Assembly: GCA_963708175.1 (NCBI GenBank)
Contig: CAVPSD010000006.1
Coordinates: 128,031-192,030, forward strand
Direction of reading: 5' to 3'
Origin: an uncultured Acidimicrobiales bacterium
Lineage (GTDB): Bacteria > Actinomycetota > Acidimicrobiia > Acidimicrobiales > DATKAS01
DNA: 64,000 nucleotides
Position numbers and translations under genes: made by a program. Below are positions 4,612 through 42,200 of the stretch, in pieces (positions within the stretch are counted from its first letter, which is position 1; every line of letters begins with the position of its first letter). The notes beneath the pieces are model-generated. The model saw only the letters and a list, made by a program, of their open reading frames with translations, made no database searches and was not told where the DNA came from.

Positions 4612-5798
4612 CACACGCTCGCGTTCACAGGAAGATCGATGTCGCGAAGCTGCTCGGCCCGCCACTTCTGGTGCAGCTCGTCACGGTCGCGGAACTCAGG
4701 CAACACCTCGCTGGCCAGGAGCTCGAGCGACTCCATGATGTGCTCGTGGCGGGTGTCGCCGTTCTGCATCGCGAAGCCCGCGAAGTCGACGTTCGTGTCC
4801 TCGATGACGCGGAGCTTGGCCCTCACGGTCTCCGGGCTTCCGATCAGGTTCGCCTCGGGATTGTTCGGGAACCCCGGCACCGGAGCACCCGGCTCGAGGT
4901 CGCGCTTGACGACCGCCAGCTCGCGGCTGAGGTGGTTGCCCTCGTGCCCGACGAGCTGTCCGGACCGAAAGATCGAGTACGAGAAGAAGTCGACTCCGTC
5001 CGCAGCTCGGGCCTCGGCCTCGGCATCACTCGGTGCCACCAACGTGGTCGAGAACGCGCCGACCGCGGGGTTCACCGCCTTGCCAATCGGCGTGATGCCT
5101 CCTCGTGCGCCGTCCCAATACTGCTCGACGCACGCGCGCACGAGGTCGGGGCCGAACAGGGCCAGGATCAGACAGCCCACGCCCGTGGACCCGAGCTCGT
5201 GACAGAGGTCGACGCGCGTCGTCGAGCGCCAGATCGGCGGATGGGGTCGTTGCACCGGCCTCGGCACGGTCGTCACTGCCGGCATCTGGAGGTACTCCCC
5301 CTCGTAGCCGGGATACGGATCCTCACTCAGCATCCGCAGGCACTCGCGCGTGCACTCCCGCCACATGTCATGACCATGTGCGAGGAGCTTCTCCGTCTCG
5401 CCGTCGAGCCCGTAGAGGATCGGGGGATGCTCGTTCGGGTTGCCGGCTCCGGTGCCCAGCTCGTAGCGACCCCGTGACAGCACGTCGATCGTGGCCGCCC
5501 GCTCCGCGACACGCGCGGGATGGTTGTGCCGCGTGACCATCTGCGTGATGCCACTGCCGATGCGGATCTGCTTCGTGCGCTGGCTGATCGCGCCCATGAT
5601 CACCTCGGGGGCGGACACTTGTGTGTACTCGCCGAGGAAGTGGTGCTCACCGATCCACACGTAATCGAAGCCGAGGCGATCGGCGAGCTCGATCTGGTCG
5701 AGGATCTCGTGGAAGCGCGCGACTTGCTGTTCCTCGTCCCAGTCGTCGTTGTCGAGCGGCTTCGGAAGATGGCCGAGGTAGAAGAGGCCGAACTTCAT
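4611..5798 (-). CDS. LLM-class (luciferase-like) flavin-dependent oxidoreductase
   Basis: Starts at MKFGLFYLGH... (ATG at 5798). Motifs LGFDYVWIGEHHF, IRIGSGI and RYELGTGAG are present. The upstream 111 codons of ORF 4611..6131 are Arg/Gly-rich shadow. Confidence 0.85.
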   Translation of the reverse strand: MKFGLFYLGHLPKPLDNDDWDEEQQVARFHEILDQIELADRLGFDYVWIGEHHFLGEYTQVSAPEVIMGAISQRTKQIRIGSGITQMVTRHNHPARVAERAATIDVLSRGRYELGTGAGNPNEHPPILYGLDGETEKLLAHGHDMWRECTRECLRMLSEDPYPGYEGEYLQMPAVTTVPRPVQRPHPPIWRSTTRVDLCHELGSTGVGCLILALFGPDLVRACVEQYWDGARGGITPIGKAVNPAVGAFSTTLVAPSDAEAEARAADGVDFFSYSIFRSGQLVGHEGNHLSRELAVVKRDLEPGAPVPGFPNNPEANLIGSPETVRAKLRVIEDTNVDFAGFAMQNGDTRHEHIMESLELLASEVLPEFRDRDELHQKWRAEQLRDIDLPVNASV

Positions 5799-33407: not shown

Positions 33408-34271
33408 CTATCCCGGCGGTGCTCCTGTCTGACGGGCCTGAGGCCGGGCTGGCTGCTGTCGCGGGGTCGACTCGTCTCGATCGGTGAGGGCCCACTTGAA
33501 GAACAGCACTGCCATCACCGTCCAGACGATGGGGATGTTGCCGATCTTCATGATGGCCCCGGCGAGCTGTTGGTCGTTCAGCGCGCCAAAGTTGTGGATG
33601 CGGGGTGCCAGCTCGTACGTGCGATAGAGCGGGAAGCTCGAGAAGGTCAGAAAACCGCCGGGGATCATCGCGAACACGCCCGCGGCGATGAAGATGTACA
33701 CCATGCGCACCGGGTAGGACGGATGCACCAGCTCGGGCAGCGGGCTGATCAGCGGCAGCCAGAGCACGAGGCCACCAGCGAGCCAGACCAAGTCGAGCAC
33801 GAACCCGCCCATCTGGGTGGTGCGAACGTTGTCGACGACGATCGGCGTGTGCGTGATGAGCAGGACCGCGTTGACGGTGATCACTGCAGCGATCGGACGC
33901 GACAGGAATCGCAGCACACGGTAGATGCGGAGCTTCCCGGTGATGCGTCGCGCCATCCACTCGGGAGTGCCGAGAAGGAGCAACGGCGACGCGACGAGCG
34001 TGTAGAGCATGTACTGGACCATGTGCGCCGACGCCAGGTAGCCCGCGCCGAGCGTCGCGAGCGGCCAGTCGGTCGCGAGCCACAGCACGACCCAACCGAA
34101 CAGGAACCACAGCACGCGGCGCCGGTCGATCGGTGCGCCGGTGCGGCGATGGCGGCGGTAGATCGCCCGGAAGTAGCCGAAGGCGAGGAGACCGACCATC
34201 AGCCACACGCCCGGGTAGGCGCGGAACTGCCAGTGCCACGGGACCTTCAGGGCCTGGCACCAGAAGCTCAC
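33408..34271 (-). CDS. Cytochrome c oxidase assembly protein (CtaG/Caa3_CtaG family)
   Basis: 287-aa polytopic membrane protein. The features ...HMVQYMLYTLVASPLLLLGTPEW... and NDQQLAGAIMKIGNIP are typical of the family. Confidence 0.7.
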   Translation of the reverse strand: MSFWCQALKVPWHWQFRAYPGVWLMVGLLAFGYFRAIYRRHRRTGAPIDRRRVLWFLFGWVVLWLATDWPLATLGAGYLASAHMVQYMLYTLVASPLLLLGTPEWMARRITGKLRIYRVLRFLSRPIAAVITVNAVLLITHTPIVVDNVRTTQMGGFVLDLVWLAGGLVLWLPLISPLPELVHPSYPVRMVYIFIAAGVFAMIPGGFLTFSSFPLYRTYELAPRIHNFGALNDQQLAGAIMKIGNIPIVWTVMAVLFFKWALTDRDESTPRQQPARPQARQTGAPPG

Positions 34272-34732
34272 GGGTTCACCTTCGCGAGCACGTCGTCATA
34301 CGACAGGACGGGGACCGTGAGGTCGATGGGCGCAGCGTGCTCGAACCGCAGCTGCACGCGAACCTCGTCGCCGGGCTGCAACGGTGCGCGCAGGTTTTCC
34401 AGCATGATGTGCGACCCACCGGGCTCGAGTCTGGTGTCGGCGCCGGCCTTCATGCGCAGATCACCGCTCGGGGCCATGTCCGGACCGTGCAGCGTGACCC
34501 TGGCTGCGGCGTCGCTCGACACGGCGATGAGCTCATCGGCGCCACCGTCGTTGTGGAGCGTCACGTATACCGCGGCCGCATCCGACGTCGACTCCGACGC
34601 GTATGCATCGACGACTGACAGATCCGCGGGTCCCGCGTTCGACGAGGTGCGAGCGAAGAACGCGATCGCGAGCCCGGCGGCCACGCCGACGAGGACCGCG
34701 CGCGTCTTCGCTTGCGACGTCATGAGGGCCAC
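34268..34732 (-). CDS. Copper chaperone PCu(A)C (DUF461)
   Basis: 154 aa with a signal/TM segment, AAVYVTLHNDGGADELIAVSS and GGSHIMLENLRAPLQPGDEV (H(M)x10Mx21HxM-like region). Confidence 0.75.
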   Translation of the reverse strand: MALMTSQAKTRAVLVGVAAGLAIAFFARTSSNAGPADLSVVDAYASESTSDAAAVYVTLHNDGGADELIAVSSDAAARVTLHGPDMAPSGDLRMKAGADTRLEPGGSHIMLENLRAPLQPGDEVRVQLRFEHAAPIDLTVPVLSYDDVLAKVNP

Positions 34733-35430
34733 TCTGTCGTCGTGACGAGTCGAGGCAGGTCACGCGCCCAGTCCGCTTGCCGGATGCCGAAGGGGTAGAC
34801 GACATGCGCCTCGTCGTCGAGCGAGTACGCGATGACCTGGCTGGCATGACCGACCTTGTACTTGCCATCAGCGGCGGGCTGCTCGAGGACCGCTTCGGGC
34901 ACTCGCGCCGCTTGCTCGGCCGCGGTGATCTCGGCAGACGTGCCGGTGAGCCCGACGAACGTCACGTCGAAGTTGTCGAGCCACTTGCGGATCACGGCGG
35001 GCGTGTCACGAGCCGGATCGGTCGTCACGAACACCACCTTGATCTTCGAGTTGACCTCTCCAGAGACCTCTTGCAGCACCGCGGCGAGGTTGGCCATGTG
35101 GAGGGGGCACACGTCCGGGCAGCTCGTGTATCCGAAGTACAGGAGCGTGACGGAACCCGCGGTCTCCTTGCGGAAGTCGTAAGGGGCGCCATCCGTGTCG
35201 GTCAGGGTGAAGTCGGGCTTCGCGAGCGGCTCCCCGAGCAGCGTGCCCGCCCACCCGTCGTTGTCGTCCGTCTCGCCCGACTCGGACCGCATCGCCAAGA
35301 ACGCGAGGACACCGAGCACGACGATTCCCAGAGCGACCGCGATGGCCACGAGCCGAACGTTCGGCGGCGTCCCCGTCGGCTCGGGAGCATCGCGGGAGGG
35401 CTCTGAAGTGGTCACGCTCATCGCGGCCAC
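34720..35430 (-). CDS. SCO1/SenC family copper-binding thioredoxin-like protein
   Basis: TM anchor, then LLYFGYTSCPDVCP (CxxxC) and ...YKVGHASQVIAY. Start is the GTG at 35430 or the ATG at 35421. Confidence 0.85.
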   Translation of the reverse strand: MAAMSVTTSEPSRDAPEPTGTPPNVRLVAIAVALGIVVLGVLAFLAMRSESGETDDNDGWAGTLLGEPLAKPDFTLTDTDGAPYDFRKETAGSVTLLYFGYTSCPDVCPLHMANLAAVLQEVSGEVNSKIKVVFVTTDPARDTPAVIRKWLDNFDVTFVGLTGTSAEITAAEQAARVPEAVLEQPAADGKYKVGHASQVIAYSLDDEAHVVYPFGIRQADWARDLPRLVTTTEWPS

Positions 35431-35459
35431 CAGTCTCGCACCGGCCCCGCCTCACCTCC

Positions 35460-35546
35460 CATTCGCCCGAGGTCTGGCCATTCGCCCGAGGTCTGGCCAT
35501 TCGCCCGAGGTCTGGCCATTCGCCCGAGGTCTGGCCATTCGCCCGA
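35460..35546. repeat. Perfect 19-bp tandem direct repeat, 4 full copies plus an 11-nt partial copy
   Basis: The unit cattcgcccgaggtctggc occurs at 35460, 35479, 35498 and 35517, with a partial copy at 35536-35546. It is intergenic, between the sco operon start and the divergent SnoaL-like gene. The period is not a multiple of 3. Confidence 0.95.
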
Positions 35547-35552
35547 TAGCGT
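35547..35552 (+). promoter_or_regulatory. Candidate -10 hexamer (TAGCGT) for a leaderless SnoaL-like gene
   Basis: A TANNNT hexamer directly abuts the end of the 19-bp array and ends 6 nt before the GTG at 35559. No SD is present. Confidence 0.4.
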
Positions 35553-35558
35553 CCGCAC

Positions 35559-35960
35559 GTGCCCGATCCGACCGCTGATGTCGAGAACGTCGCCGCCCGC
35601 TTCTTCGCCGCGATCGAGGCGGGCGACACCGCCGCCCTGCGCTCCCTGTACGCACCCGACGCGGTCGTGTGGCACAACACCGACCAGGTCGAGCAGTCCG
35701 TCGACCAGAACCTCGTCGTGTTGCACTGGGTGGTCGACCACGTGAAGGGCTGGCACTACGAGGACGTCCGGCGCACGGCCTACGACGGTGGCTTCGTCCA
35801 GCAACACATCGGCAAGGGCGTCGCGCCGAGCGGGCTGCCGTTCGCGATGCCCGCCTGCATCGTCGGCACCGTGGAGGGCGGGAGGGTCACCCGTATCGAG
35901 GAGTACATCGACTCCGCGGCCGTCGAGGCGCTGCGCGTCAGACCAGATCGCCCTGACTGA
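35559..35960 (+). CDS. SnoaL-like / NTF2-fold protein
   Basis: 133 aa, VENVAARFFAAIEAGDTAALRSLYAPDAVVWHN..., typical of NTF2-like ketosteroid-isomerase-fold proteins. Confidence 0.65.
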   Translation: MPDPTADVENVAARFFAAIEAGDTAALRSLYAPDAVVWHNTDQVEQSVDQNLVVLHWVVDHVKGWHYEDVRRTAYDGGFVQQHIGKGVAPSGLPFAMPACIVGTVEGGRVTRIEEYIDSAAVEALRVRPDRPD

Positions 35961-36684
35961 TCGGCGTCTGCTCGGTCACGGGCACACCGCCCTGGACCTC
36001 GTCGGTGATCATGATCGTCTGCACGAGCGGATCGGTGTGGAACGCCGACACAGACGGATCGTTGCCGAGCACGCCGAGTGAGATGACCTCTGAGCCGATG
36101 ACGCCCCACATCTGGTAGGTGCGATCCGACGCGAGCGTCGGCATCGAGCGCGGGACGAGGTAGCCCTGGCCGTCGAGCTGCACGATGACGTCCGCCATCG
36201 TGGTCCCCGCGTCGGTCGTCAGCGCGGTCAGTCGCGAGTCGGGATCGGTCATCGCGCTCGCAGCCGCAGCCACGACCGCATCCGCCGAGGAGGCCGCCTC
36301 GAGGTCGTCGATGCGCTGACCCTGGTGCACGACGGTGAGGCCGAGCATCGCGATCGCCGCCGCGGCGACCGCACCGAGTGCGACGGGCCACCACCGTCGC
36401 TTGGGCTTCTCGTCCGCCGCCACGAGCCGCAGTTGTGGGACGGGATGTTCGGCGGCGTCGGTCGCGATCTCCTCCGAGATCCGATCCCAGACGCCATCGG
36501 GAGCTTGGCCGCCGACGAGGGACATCATCGCCGCCACCTCGCGGTGCTCGGTGACCTCCGCGCGGGCCCGCGGGTTCTGCTCCAGGTACTGCTCGATCTG
36601 CTCGCGCTCGTCCGGATCGACGGCGTCGAGCGCATAGGCACCGAGCAGTTCGTCCATCTCAGCAGGCGTCAACCGCCGGTTCAT
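35938..36684 (-). CDS. Anti-sigma factor (RskA-like, zf-HC2-less N domain plus TM plus extracytoplasmic domain)
   Basis: 248 aa, ELLGAYALDAVDPDEREQIEQYLEQNPRARAEV, the TM helix WWPVALGAVAAAAIAMLGLTV, and a C-terminal YQMWGV motif typical of RskA. It overlaps the sigma gene stop. Confidence 0.75.
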   Translation of the reverse strand: MNRRLTPAEMDELLGAYALDAVDPDEREQIEQYLEQNPRARAEVTEHREVAAMMSLVGGQAPDGVWDRISEEIATDAAEHPVPQLRLVAADEKPKRRWWPVALGAVAAAAIAMLGLTVVHQGQRIDDLEAASSADAVVAAAASAMTDPDSRLTALTTDAGTTMADVIVQLDGQGYLVPRSMPTLASDRTYQMWGVIGSEVISLGVLGNDPSVSAFHTDPLVQTIMITDEVQGGVPVTEQTPISQGDLV

Positions 36685-37268
36685 GACGGCCCTCCCGCGC
36701 CGATGTCGACGAGTGTCGTCCGCATCCGCTTGAGACCCGACCGAATGCGGCTCTTCACTGTGCCCTCAGGTTCCCGCAAGAGCGCTGCGACCTCCCGATA
36801 GGTGTGGCCACCGAAGTACGCGAGCTCGATTGCGCGGCGCTCGCCCTCGGGCAAGGACGACACCGCTTGACGCACCTTCTCCGCCATCGCCAGGTCCCAC
36901 ACCTCGTGCTCCAGGTCATATCCGCCTTCCGCCGTGGCCCGCGCCTCCCGCTCCTCGCGACGCCGCCTCGAGCCCTCGGAACGCAACAGGTCGACCGACC
37001 GGCCATGGGTCTGCGCGAGGAGGTACGAGCGCAGCGAGCCGCGACTCGGCTCGAAGCGATCCGGATGGTTCCAGAGCCGGAGGAACACCTCCTGGGTGAC
37101 CTCCTCCGCGAGCGTCTCGTTCGCGAGCAGCCGGCGAGCGAGGCCGTAGACCGCACCGGCGTGCCGGCGGTACGCCTCGGCAAGGGCGTCCTGGCGGTAG
37201 CGAGCAACTGCCACGACGAGCGCGGCATCGCTGACGTCGCGCAGCGGCTCGGCGTTCACGGGAGGCAT
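36681..37268 (-). CDS. ECF RNA polymerase sigma factor (SigK-like)
   Basis: 195 aa with region 2 (EVTQEVFLRLWNHPDRFEP) and region 4 (LPEGERRAIELAYFGGHTYREVAALLREPEGTVKSRIRSGLKRM). Confidence 0.85.
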   Translation of the reverse strand: MPPVNAEPLRDVSDAALVVAVARYRQDALAEAYRRHAGAVYGLARRLLANETLAEEVTQEVFLRLWNHPDRFEPSRGSLRSYLLAQTHGRSVDLLRSEGSRRRREEREARATAEGGYDLEHEVWDLAMAEKVRQAVSSLPEGERRAIELAYFGGHTYREVAALLREPEGTVKSRIRSGLKRMRTTLVDIGAGGPS

Positions 37269-37284
37269 ACGGATCCGATGTCCT

Positions 37285-37352
37285 GTTCGGATCAGGCGGC
37301 TGTTCGGATCACACCGTCGTTCGGATCACACTGTCGTTCGGATCACCCCGGC
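37285..37352. repeat. 17-bp-period tandem array, 4 copies of the core GTTCGGATCA (TGATCCGAAC on the sigma-gene strand)
   Basis: The cores start at 37285, 37302, 37319 and 37336, exactly 17 bp apart, with 7-nt variable spacers. The array fills the whole 74-nt gap between the RumA-like stop (37343-37345, inside copy 4) and the ECF sigma ATG (37268). Confidence 0.9.
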
Positions 37353-39254: not shown

Positions 39255-42200
39255 GACCAGCGCCTCGACCTCCGCACACGCAGCCTCGAGATCGGTGAGG
39301 TCTCGTTCGAGACACCGCGCCGGACCCGCGAAGAGGAACGCACATCGCTCGACCGAGCGTCCGAGCGAACGCCGCACTGCCAACGTGTACGCAGCCGCCT
39401 GCAGCCGGTAGCGGCCGATCGCCTCGTCAGCGTCGGCCTCGCTGCGCACGCCATCGGTCTTGTAGTCGACGACGATCAGCCCACCCGCTTCGGTCTCGTA
39501 CAGCAGGTCGATGAAGCCCTCGAGCACACGGTCACCGATCGGCACGGCGACGAAGACCTCACGCCAGTAGCGATCACTCGCGACTGCCGCTCGCACGCTG
39601 GGGGACTCGAGCACACCGCGGGCGCGACGGGCGATGTCGCCGGCCAGGTCGTGCACACCTTCGGCCGCTGCCTGCGCAGCCGCGAGGTCGTCGACACCCG
39701 CACCTGTCGCCAGATCGACGGTTTGGAGCACCGCGTGCACGGCGCGACCGATGGCGGTGCCTGCCCGGCCGCGCCGCCACGGCGGTTCGTCTTCGGCTCG
39801 CTCATCCGCTTCGTCCGGCGTGGCGTCGACGATGTCGTCGGCGACCCCGTCGTCCGTCGGCGCCCTCGTCGGCGCCCTCGTCGGCCGTCTCGACGAGTTG
39901 ACGAGCCAGATGCTCGAGGCGCGTCGCCGCCACCGCGGGTGAACGTCCGAGCCGCTCGATTGCGGCAGCACGCGCGACGACCCAGGCTTCGCGCTCGTTC
40001 GGCGCGTCGGGTGACGGGACGAGCTCGATGGGCAAATCGGTGCCCTTCGCCAGGAGAGGCGTCGCTTCGAGCTTCGGCACCACGGGACAACGAGGCGCGA
40101 TCTCCCTCGCCAGCGTGTCGAGGCTCGGAGACGGTCGGAAGAGGCTCAGCACGAGGCGGTCGCGCGCTCTGGTCATCGCGACATACGCGAGCCGCACTCG
40201 TTCCGCTCTGAACGCGGCGCTCTCGTCGGTCCAGAGGTCCTTGTACTTGGCCGTCTCGAAGAGATCTCCCTTCTGGGCGCCCGCCTTCACCTCGGGGCCG
40301 TCCGGGCCCCAGAGCACCGGCGGCCCGAGGGCCCGATAGCGCGAGTTGAGACCCATCAGCACCACGATCGGGAACTCGAGACCCTTCGACGCGTGCACCG
40401 TGAGGATGCGGACGGCGTCGTCGTCTGGGTCGGGGGCGATCGCGTCGTTGACCCATACGTCTCGCTCGGCCTGCTCCCGTGCCCACGCCACGAACTCTTC
40501 GATCGATGTGCCGCCCGCGGCCTCGAACGCCCGCGCCTGCGCGAGGAAGAACTCGACGCGGCGCCAGCGGTCACGAGGGCGGGCGTGGGCGAAAGCGAGC
40601 TCGCGCAGGTGGCAGACGTCGATGACCCGCCGCACCATCTCACCGATCGACAGCCAGTGACGGTCGCGATGAAGGCCATTGAGCACCGCCATCGCCGCGG
40701 CAACCGGATGGCTCGGGTCGATGGAAACGTGCTCAGCTGACAGGTAGCTCCAGCGACCGTCGTGCCATCTCCACGTGGCGAGATCGACGTCCGAGCACGC
40801 GAGACCGGGTGAGCGGAGGGCCGCGACGACCGCCACGTGGTCGTTCGGATCGCTGATCGCACTGAGCACCGCCAGCAGGTCTCGGACCTCTGCGGTGTTC
40901 CAGATGAGCATGCGACTCTCGACGCGAGCAGGGATGCCGGCGGCGTCGAGACCGTGATCGAGCGCGGGCAGCGTCGCCCGAGTCGGCATCAGTACCGCGA
41001 TGTCGGAGTAACGCGCCGGACGAAACTCGTCCTTCCCGACCCGGACCCTCCACCCTTCGCGCTTGGCTTGCGCGACGACGCGCACCACCTCTTCGGCCTC
41101 GCGGGCGCGCACCTCGGCGGTCGGGAGGTCAGCGAGCTCCACGCCGATCGTGACCACCGCGGGACTCGAGTCGTGGTCCGCCACGTGCGCGGTCAGCGGC
41201 ACATACTCCGGTTGGGCGGCGGTGTCTGGCTCGTTCATCCACTCGGAGAACAACCCGTTGACGAAATCGACGATCGAGGCGACGGTCCGGAAGTTCTCAG
41301 TGAGGTGGAGCGCGGGGTGGGCGAACACCTTCTGAGCGCGGCGATAGAGCTCGACGTCGGCCCGGCGGAACCGGTAGATCGACTGCTTCGGGTCGCCGAC
41401 GAAGAAGAGCCGACCCGCGTCTGCAGGCGTGAGCGGGTCGTCCCACCATGCGCGCGAAGCGATGTCCGGCCGAGACGACGCCAGCAGCACTGCGATCTCG
41501 ATCTGCAGCGGGTCAGTGTCCTGAAACTCATCGATCAGGATCCGCTCGTACGCGACGCGGGACGCCGCGCGCACGTCGTCGTGACGCAGCGCGTCGCGCG
41601 CGAGCACGAGCAGGTCGTGAAACAGCAGCTGCCCCTCGCTCATGCGCTCGTCTGCCCACTCGAGCACCGAAGCCGCAAACGCAGGGACGAGGGCAGTGAT
41701 GGCGTCACGGCGAAGGTCGAACAGCAGGCCCTTGAGGGCCTTCTTCGCGGCAGATGCGCCCTTCTTCGGCAGGACCCCCTCGGTTCGCAGAACGTCGATG
41801 CGCGTCTCGTCGCTGTCGGCCTTCTGCGCTCGGGCGATGTACTCGTCGAGCACCGGCTCGCCGTCGGTCTTCAACACCGAGAGCGGCTGCACGAACGACG
41901 AGATGTCGACCGGTGGCAGCTCGACCCTCTGCGCCGGCCATGCCCACGAGACGTCGGACTCGCGGAGGCGGTCGTAGCTCTGGTGGAGCGCGTAGAGGAT
42001 CTCTCGGATGCGGCCGGGCGTGAGGCCGAGCTCGACCGCGTGGACGACAACGGGGGCGAGCTCGCCCTTCGGATCGAACAGCCGCGCCGCGAGCTCGCGC
42101 CATCTCTGTTCGAGGTGTATCGCCTCGCCCACCTCGTCGAGCACCTCGAAGCGAGGGGGCACGCCGACCGCCAGTCCGTGCTGGGTGAGCAGCCTGCGAG

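Follow-up and report, generated by a model that had tools for sequence, protein, structure and literature searches.

In the classical contingency loci of Neisseria and Haemophilus, units of 1-8 nt lie between the -35 and -10 boxes, and their copy number sets the length of the spacer. The operators of copper regulators of the CsoR, CopY and CueR/MerR types are dyad-symmetric single sites, and the regulator gene is usually found nearby. Promoter tandem repeats (PTRs/VNTRs) have been described in M. tuberculosis at dop, lpdA (VNTR 3690) and cysG-efpA (Modlin et al. 2025, PMC12817950). Their units measure 54-58 bp and are located upstream of the leaderless genes lpdA and cysG and of dop, and copy number differs between clinical lineages and also within isogenic cultures; they are described as repeated promoter sequences, and 12 bp separate the end of the lpdA repeat from its gene (PMC12817950).

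The M. tuberculosis PTRs are the closest described phenomenon to a tandem array that we report here from the intergenic region between sco and a SnoaL-like gene, on a 64-kb stretch of DNA from an uncultured bacterium (the window, in what follows). Both are actinobacterial, both consist of head-to-tail copies that are identical or nearly so and immediately precede leaderless genes, for both an origin by slippage is presumed, and the array ends 12 bp before the GTG of the SnoaL-like gene, just as the lpdA repeat does before its own gene. Unlike the M. tuberculosis PTRs, the array has a unit of only 19 bp, which lacks a -10 box and covers part of a -35-region element only; it sits between two divergent promoters and is known from one contig of the species. 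The array thus shares with promoter tandem repeats the head-to-tail arrangement of at least two copies of high identity and the location directly upstream of a leaderless gene, the promoters being deduced from conservation, but its 19-nt unit does not contain the whole promoter that characterises the M. tuberculosis type. Like a contingency locus, the array is a promoter-region repeat prone to slipped-strand mispairing, yet the bases beside both -10 boxes stay constant at any copy number of at least two; copy number alters neither a spacer length nor a reading frame. Like the operators of copper regulators it lies upstream of copper-handling genes, but it is a dyad-free direct repeat, and no gene for such a regulator occurs in the conserved neighbourhood.

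We consider it likely that the array is a genuine, recent and lineage-specific promoter tandem repeat in the bidirectional sco/SnoaL promoter, most likely generated by slippage or unequal recombination. All promoter assignments rest on conservation combined with general knowledge of actinobacterial promoters. If the array were both variable and functional, it would bring uncultured, free-living actinobacteria, and the supply of copper for respiration, into the range of the PTR phase variation recently shown in M. tuberculosis; it would represent a variant that amplifies the upstream recognition element alone and not the whole promoter, and a case in which a shared bidirectional promoter has been split into two independent ones. 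If it were neutral, it would be an ordinary minisatellite. The comparison also yields two concrete cis-elements, GGCGAATGGGAG at the putative -35 region of sco and TGATCC-N17-CGTAT at an ECF sigma factor gene, and the recurrence of duplications at two promoters of one gene module is the most interesting lead.

The array and its genomic setting

Tandem Repeats Finder places the array at 35459-35546, with a period of 19, 4.6 copies, 100% matches, no indels and a score of 176, the highest in the 64-kb window. Direct reading agrees, and both bear out the initial annotation, which had described a perfect array of four identical copies followed by an 11-nt partial one (Table 1). The left flank reads ...CCTCACCTCC; the partial copy is directly followed on its right by TAGCGT (35547-52), CCGCAC and the GTG at 35559. 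Each unit is made up of a core, CCATTCGCC, and an 8-nt linker, GGTCTGGC. The array does not multiply whole promoters, because the unit has no -10 box: by direct reading, TANNNT occurs on neither of its strands. The 19-bp period corresponds to 1.8 helical turns, and successive copies are therefore not on one face of the DNA helix. Neither inverted repeats nor dyad symmetry was found inside the array, and its folding does not exceed that of shuffled sequence (z = 0.83).

A dispersed or mobile repeat of the REP/MITE kind, which would have severed the link between the 19-mer and this promoter, was discarded. With up to three mismatches, the 19-mer has four sites in the window, all in the array, against a chance expectation of 0.06. 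Across 185,579 species-representative genomes (596 Gb) it has 12 single, non-tandem matches, which include homologous pairs, lie in unrelated contexts and are about as many as expected by chance, and a junction-spanning 21-mer has no match in viral contigs. Two further candidates were rejected: a known RNA, given that Rfam at the gathering threshold returns only a tRNA elsewhere in the window and that the array does not fold beyond shuffled sequence, and plasmid iterons, given that there is no rep gene and that relatives keep the same chromosomal gene order.

The gene order sigma factor, anti-sigma factor, SnoaL and then, divergently, sco-PCuAC-ctaG is kept in relatives, and this conserved neighbourhood holds no regulator gene besides the ECF sigma/anti-sigma pair. 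What had been annotated as a copper operon does contain copper genes by Pfam, but it is better called a cytochrome-oxidase copper-delivery and assembly operon. Its first gene was initially called at 34720-35430, from a GTG at 35430; however, the N-terminus MS[VLI]VTSEPS is kept from the ATG at 35421 in 11 relatives, the 9 nt upstream of this ATG vary freely, and the GTG is not conserved. Since sco starts at the ATG, the intergenic region measures 137 bp and the array lies 39 bp from the sco start, which corrects the earlier figures of 128 and 30 bp.

Table 1. Coordinates of genes, repeats and putative promoter elements in the window
Feature	Position	Strand	Evidence and remarks
Caa3_CtaG-like gene	33408-34271	-	Pfam; operon sco-PCuAC-CtaG-like
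PCu(A)C gene	34268-34732	-	Pfam; operon sco-PCuAC-CtaG-like
sco (SCO1/SenC, 233 aa from ATG at 35421)	34720..35421	-	Pfam; first gene of operon
Block B, CAGTCTCGCACCG (minus strand CGGTGCGAGACTG)	35431..35443	-	near-invariant in orthologues
Block A, CTCCCATTCGCC (minus strand GGCGAATGGGAG)	35456..35467	-	near-invariant, spacing fixed, 11 orthologous loci
Tandem array	35460..35546	.	four identical CATTCGCCCGAGGTCTGGC units (35460-35535) and 11-nt partial CATTCGCCCGA (35536-35546)
TAGCGT, putative -10 box (TANNNT) of SnoaL	35547..35552	+	6 nt before GTG; conserved in orthologues
SnoaL_2-domain gene (133 aa, GTG start)	35559..35960	+	Pfam; converges on anti-sigma gene
RskA-type anti-sigma gene	35938-36684	-	Pfam; operon with ECF sigma
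SigK-like ECF sigma gene	36681-37268	-	Pfam; operon with anti-sigma, 35938..37268
Putative ECF sigma promoter	37257..37294	-	TGATCC (37294-89), N17, CGTATG (37271-66), N6, GTG (37259-57)
Second array, 4 x TGATCCGAAC, 17-bp period	37285..37350	-	Tandem Repeats Finder; copies 37345-36, 37328-19, 37311-02, 37294-85

A conserved layout in related genomes

Orthologous loci were obtained by exact-protein look-up and one metagenome scan. The exact Sco protein occurs on a single contig, of 832 kb, in a collection of 15 billion proteins, and exact-protein look-ups for Sco and SnoaL returned no second contig of the species. The next relative is 85% identical in Sco; among the relatives, all at or below this value, one at 72% is labelled Acidimicrobiales, which points to an uncultured actinobacterium, probably a soil-dwelling member of the Acidimicrobiia, as the source. 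The intergenic regions of 11 loci (L013-L022 and L029; Sco 60-85% identical) were compared with a regular expression and share one fixed layout, CAT-N9-CAGTCTCGCACCG-N12-CTCCCATTCGCC-N3-TANNNT-N6-8-GTG/ATG(SnoaL), where CAT is the reverse complement of the sco ATG. In these 11 loci CAGTCTCGCACCG (block B), CTCCCATTCGCC (block A) and TANNNT are nearly invariant, and the N9 and N12 stretches are free in sequence and never change in length: block B is always separated from the sco ATG by 9 variable nt and from block A by 12.

In ten of the 11 relatives the CATTCGCC element is present exactly once. Collapsing the array of the window reproduces the fixed layout exactly, and because it does so, the net insertion of 76 bp (4 x 19) relative to the orthologues appears specific to the window's lineage; the array is absent from all relatives examined. 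The earlier statements that the array is non-coding and that it occupies a divergent promoter region are both in keeping with the comparison, as 76 bp is not a multiple of three, no relative has the insertion, and the orthologous loci place it between the two promoters. The exception to the single copy is L018, the closest relative (Sco 85% identical), which has a tandem duplication of the block A element of its own, CTCCCATTCGCgg followed by CTCCCATTCGCC. Tandem Repeats Finder reports it at 1443-1470 with 2.2 copies of 13 bp at 93%, a period that differs from that of the window, and the element duplicated is the conserved CTCCCATTCGC of the sco/SnoaL promoter. This duplication is independent of the array of the window, so that between species the copy count is one in 10 relatives and two, independently acquired, in L018.

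On the SnoaL side, the proposal that TAGCGT is the TANNNT box of a leaderless gene has held up well. In 12 of 12 orthologues a TANNNT box, in the variants TAGCGT, TATGGT, TAGTTT, TATCGT or TACCGT, lies 6-8 nt before the GTG or ATG, the protein is conserved from this codon onward ([VM]PDQPADVE...), and between box and start codon there is no space for a ribosome-binding site. Leaderless actinobacterial genes typically have TANNNT just before the start codon, and a leaderless start of the SnoaL-like gene is strongly backed by the comparison of orthologues. On the sco side, the minus strand of block B reads CGG-TGc-GAGACT-G and offers a candidate extended -10 box (TGcGAGACT, 35440-35432) 10 nt before the ATG, a distance at which the leader would be very short or absent. 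A scan for E. coli-type sigma-70 promoters found nothing, as expected for a G+C-rich genome, and is uninformative.

The first copy of block A is at its native position, about -42 to -31 with respect to sco and -27 to -16 with respect to the ancestral SnoaL promoter. Block A is probably part of the -35 region of the sco promoter and travels with sco, because it is also present upstream of sco in L030, a more distant locus (Sco 58% identical) without a SnoaL neighbour, where GGCGAATGGG is found 19 nt upstream of TAGTGT-N6-GTG(sco). The element is missing at more distant sco loci, and searches of the 64-kb window and the fetched loci turned up no other gene preceded by it. The SigH/SigR-type consensus is GGAAT-N17-18-GTT and the SigC-type consensus is SSSAAT-N16-20-CGTSSS. 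L030 fits CGAAT-N17-GTT; a SigH/SigR- or SigC-type reading of GGCGAAT... is nevertheless not supported, as the corresponding triplet in the main clade is GGT, AGT or GGC and hence not conserved. L030 also contains a 95-bp x 1.9 tandem repeat of 94% identity (2251-2432, Tandem Repeats Finder score 327), which is intergenic and precedes a YjgF-like gene transcribed divergently from sco.

Promoter geometry and origin of the array

What the array repeats is the core of block A, CCATTCGCC. The unit carries nine of the 12 positions of CTCCCATTCGCC, and the inner copies differ from block A at the remaining three, where TGG replaces CTC. Because the change is a tandem repeat, both promoters retain a native junction: at the sco end, the first copy preserves the spacing between a complete block A and the sco -10 box, and at the SnoaL end, the partial copy that closes the array preserves that between CATTCGCCCGA and TAGCGT. 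The sco promoter is consequently unchanged out to about -46, upstream of which the array has its sco-side limit, and the SnoaL promoter out to -23, the other end of the array lying at the conserved TANNNT box. At whatever copy number, the spacing of the SnoaL -10 box and of the 11 bases before it is native, which means that gain or loss of copies alters only the distance between the two promoters and cannot switch the length of a -35/-10 spacer. The initial annotation had expected each copy gained or lost to shift or duplicate the -35 and upstream regions of both promoters. This stands insofar as the upstream cores are multiplied, whereas the proximal spacing of sco and SnoaL is native.

In the relatives, the back-to-back -10 boxes are 33 bp apart and the inferred start sites about 58 bp; in the window these distances are 109 bp and about 134 bp, respectively. 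The footprint of RNA polymerase spans roughly -55 to +20. At about 58 bp the ancestral promoters should therefore exclude each other, and those of the window, at about 134 bp, need not do so.

The ancestral state would have been a compact bidirectional promoter with one 12-nt element, GGCGAATGGGAG, between the -10 boxes and in the -35 region of sco. The 19-bp unit of core and 8-nt linker would then have been amplified, most likely by slippage during replication or by unequal recombination; the promoters thereby moved 76 bp further apart, each with a core at native spacing, and three or four extra cores came to lie between them. As a consequence, two RNA polymerases could occupy both promoters at once, which would remove the occlusion expected at 58 bp, and a reader of the conserved element, be it a sigma factor or an activator, might gain extra sites. 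With perfect copies the locus would also be prone to further changes in copy number. The perfect identity of the copies is the reason to consider the array recent, as had been proposed at the outset. The unit is not explained by a plain duplication of ancestral sequence, since the linker GGTCTGGC occurs in none of the relatives and the window contains no donor for it. The reverse complement of the linker matches the left flank at eight of 10 positions (GCCAGACCTC vs GCCTCACCTC), an imperfect palindrome around the core that could hint at a template-switch origin, although the match is only marginally beyond chance.

A second array at the sigma factor promoter

A second array is located 1.8 kb from the first and fills the gap between the stop codon of an rlmD-like gene and the ECF sigma gene. 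On the strand of the sigma gene it reads TGATCCGAAC-GACAGTG-TGATCCGAAC-GACGGTG-TGATCCGAAC-AGCCGCC-TGATCCGAAC-AGGACATCGGATC-CGTATG-CCTCCC-GTG, and as an array it is partly diverged. The motif T[GC]ATCC-N17-CGTAT[GC]-N6-GTG is present in five of five loci (the window, L013, L014, L015 and L029), but the number of -35 boxes varies: one in L014, L015 and L029, two in L013 and four in the window, where only the TGATCCGAAC copy nearest to the gene has the -35/-10 spacing of the conserved promoter. With a conserved -35/-10 pair at a fixed 17-nt spacing directly upstream of the sigma operon in all five loci, the region resembles the autoregulatory promoters of SigK/ECF19-like sigma factors, and the putative promoter is built like an autoregulatory one of the ECF type, with a leaderless GTG start. 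The sigma factor itself has SigK as its best NCBIfam match but remains under the family threshold (157 bits vs a cut-off of 226), and the anti-sigma factor carries RskA domains. We know of no described SigK promoter in which the -35 box is repeated four times. The annotated ATG of the sigma gene (37268) overlaps the CGTATG -10-like box, and the conserved GTG at 37259, 9 nt downstream, is more likely the leaderless start in all five loci.

Two promoters of one gene module thus appear to have undergone tandem amplification of -35-region elements, with precursor or parallel duplications in the two nearest relatives (L018 at sco/SnoaL, L013 at the sigma gene). The arrays bracket the sigma/anti-sigma operon (35938..37268) and lie upstream of two facing promoters, P-sigK and P-snoaL, since the SnoaL-like gene and this operon converge and overlap by 23 bp. 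In this clade, tandem amplification of -35-region elements may be a recurrent and selected means of tuning or phase-varying the gene module; as the transcripts of P-sigK and P-snoaL overlap, array copy number at either end could set the balance of an antisense toggle, and it could also uncouple the expression of sco from this toggle. We put this forward as a speculative and rather improbable reading. The convergent overlap of the SnoaL-like gene (+) and the RskA-type anti-sigma gene (-) at 35938-35960 is itself conserved in relatives and leaves no space for a terminator, and because of this, SnoaL transcription may continue antisense into the anti-sigma/sigma operon. A direct role of the ECF sigma factor at the first array was rejected by the criterion of its own promoter motif: the sole match to GATCC-N15-19-CGTAT in the window is at the sigma gene itself, and sco/SnoaL has none.

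Alternative explanations

The array could instead have been selected as a set of iterated sites, such that a regulator of the core CCATTCGCC, possibly responsive to copper or redox state, gains four sites and with them gain or cooperativity in the control of sco and SnoaL. No other non-coding sequence of the locus is as conserved as the repeated core, the block A element has been duplicated independently in L018, and the second array likewise repeats a recognition element, the ECF -35 box. Against this, the unit has neither dyad symmetry nor predicted structure, its 1.8 turns do not bring the copies onto one helix face, the inner copies lack three of the 12 conserved positions, and no other gene in the window or the fetched loci was found with the element upstream of it. 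The ECF pair contributes the only regulator genes of the conserved neighbourhood, and the ECF promoter motif does not occur between sco and SnoaL. An operator array would show dyads or in-phase repeats along with a nearby regulator gene, none of which is found here, and the notion of a copper-sensing operator set, raised in the initial annotation, is for the same reasons not favoured (no dyad, no copper-regulator gene nearby, 19 bp off one helix face). We regard iterated regulator sites as an unlikely explanation overall.

Likewise unlikely is a neutral array, a slippage product without regulatory effect that is tolerated since both proximal promoters stay intact. In favour of it, both -10 boxes and the adjacent conserved bases have kept their native spacing, the unit contains no promoter box, and the N12 stretch upstream of the SnoaL core promoter is free in relatives, which suggests that SnoaL has no need of a specific -35 sequence. 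What makes strict neutrality doubtful is the invariant spacing in 10 of the 11 relatives over a range of 60-85% identity in Sco, which argues that the distance between the promoters is under constraint, together with the recurrence of duplications at two promoters of one gene module.

Finally, an artefact introduced when a metagenome-assembled genome was assembled or polished might be suspected, as the contig comes from an uncultured organism and is the only one in the 15-billion-protein collection to carry the exact Sco protein, but it is very improbable: the 87-bp array is perfectly periodic and shorter than a typical sequencing read, which makes assembly alone an unlikely source, assembly errors usually collapse repeats instead of creating them, a separate assembly (L018, a JGI metagenome) duplicates the same element, and the second array of the window is partly diverged and has a two-copy form in L013. 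This leaves a genuine promoter tandem repeat as the preferred reading.

Two minor observations concern other parts of the data set. In L014, a long-read assembly, the sigma factor is called as a 97-aa fragment and ctaG is shortened (2200-2519, 5169-5326); these short gene calls suggest frameshift errors or pseudogenes in the assembly. The window has a further repeat at 39824-39889, in which 2.1 copies of 31 bp contain a nested repeat of 2.6 copies of 12 bp (Tandem Repeats Finder scores 83 and 62), and which probably lies within the coding region of a UvrD-like helicase.
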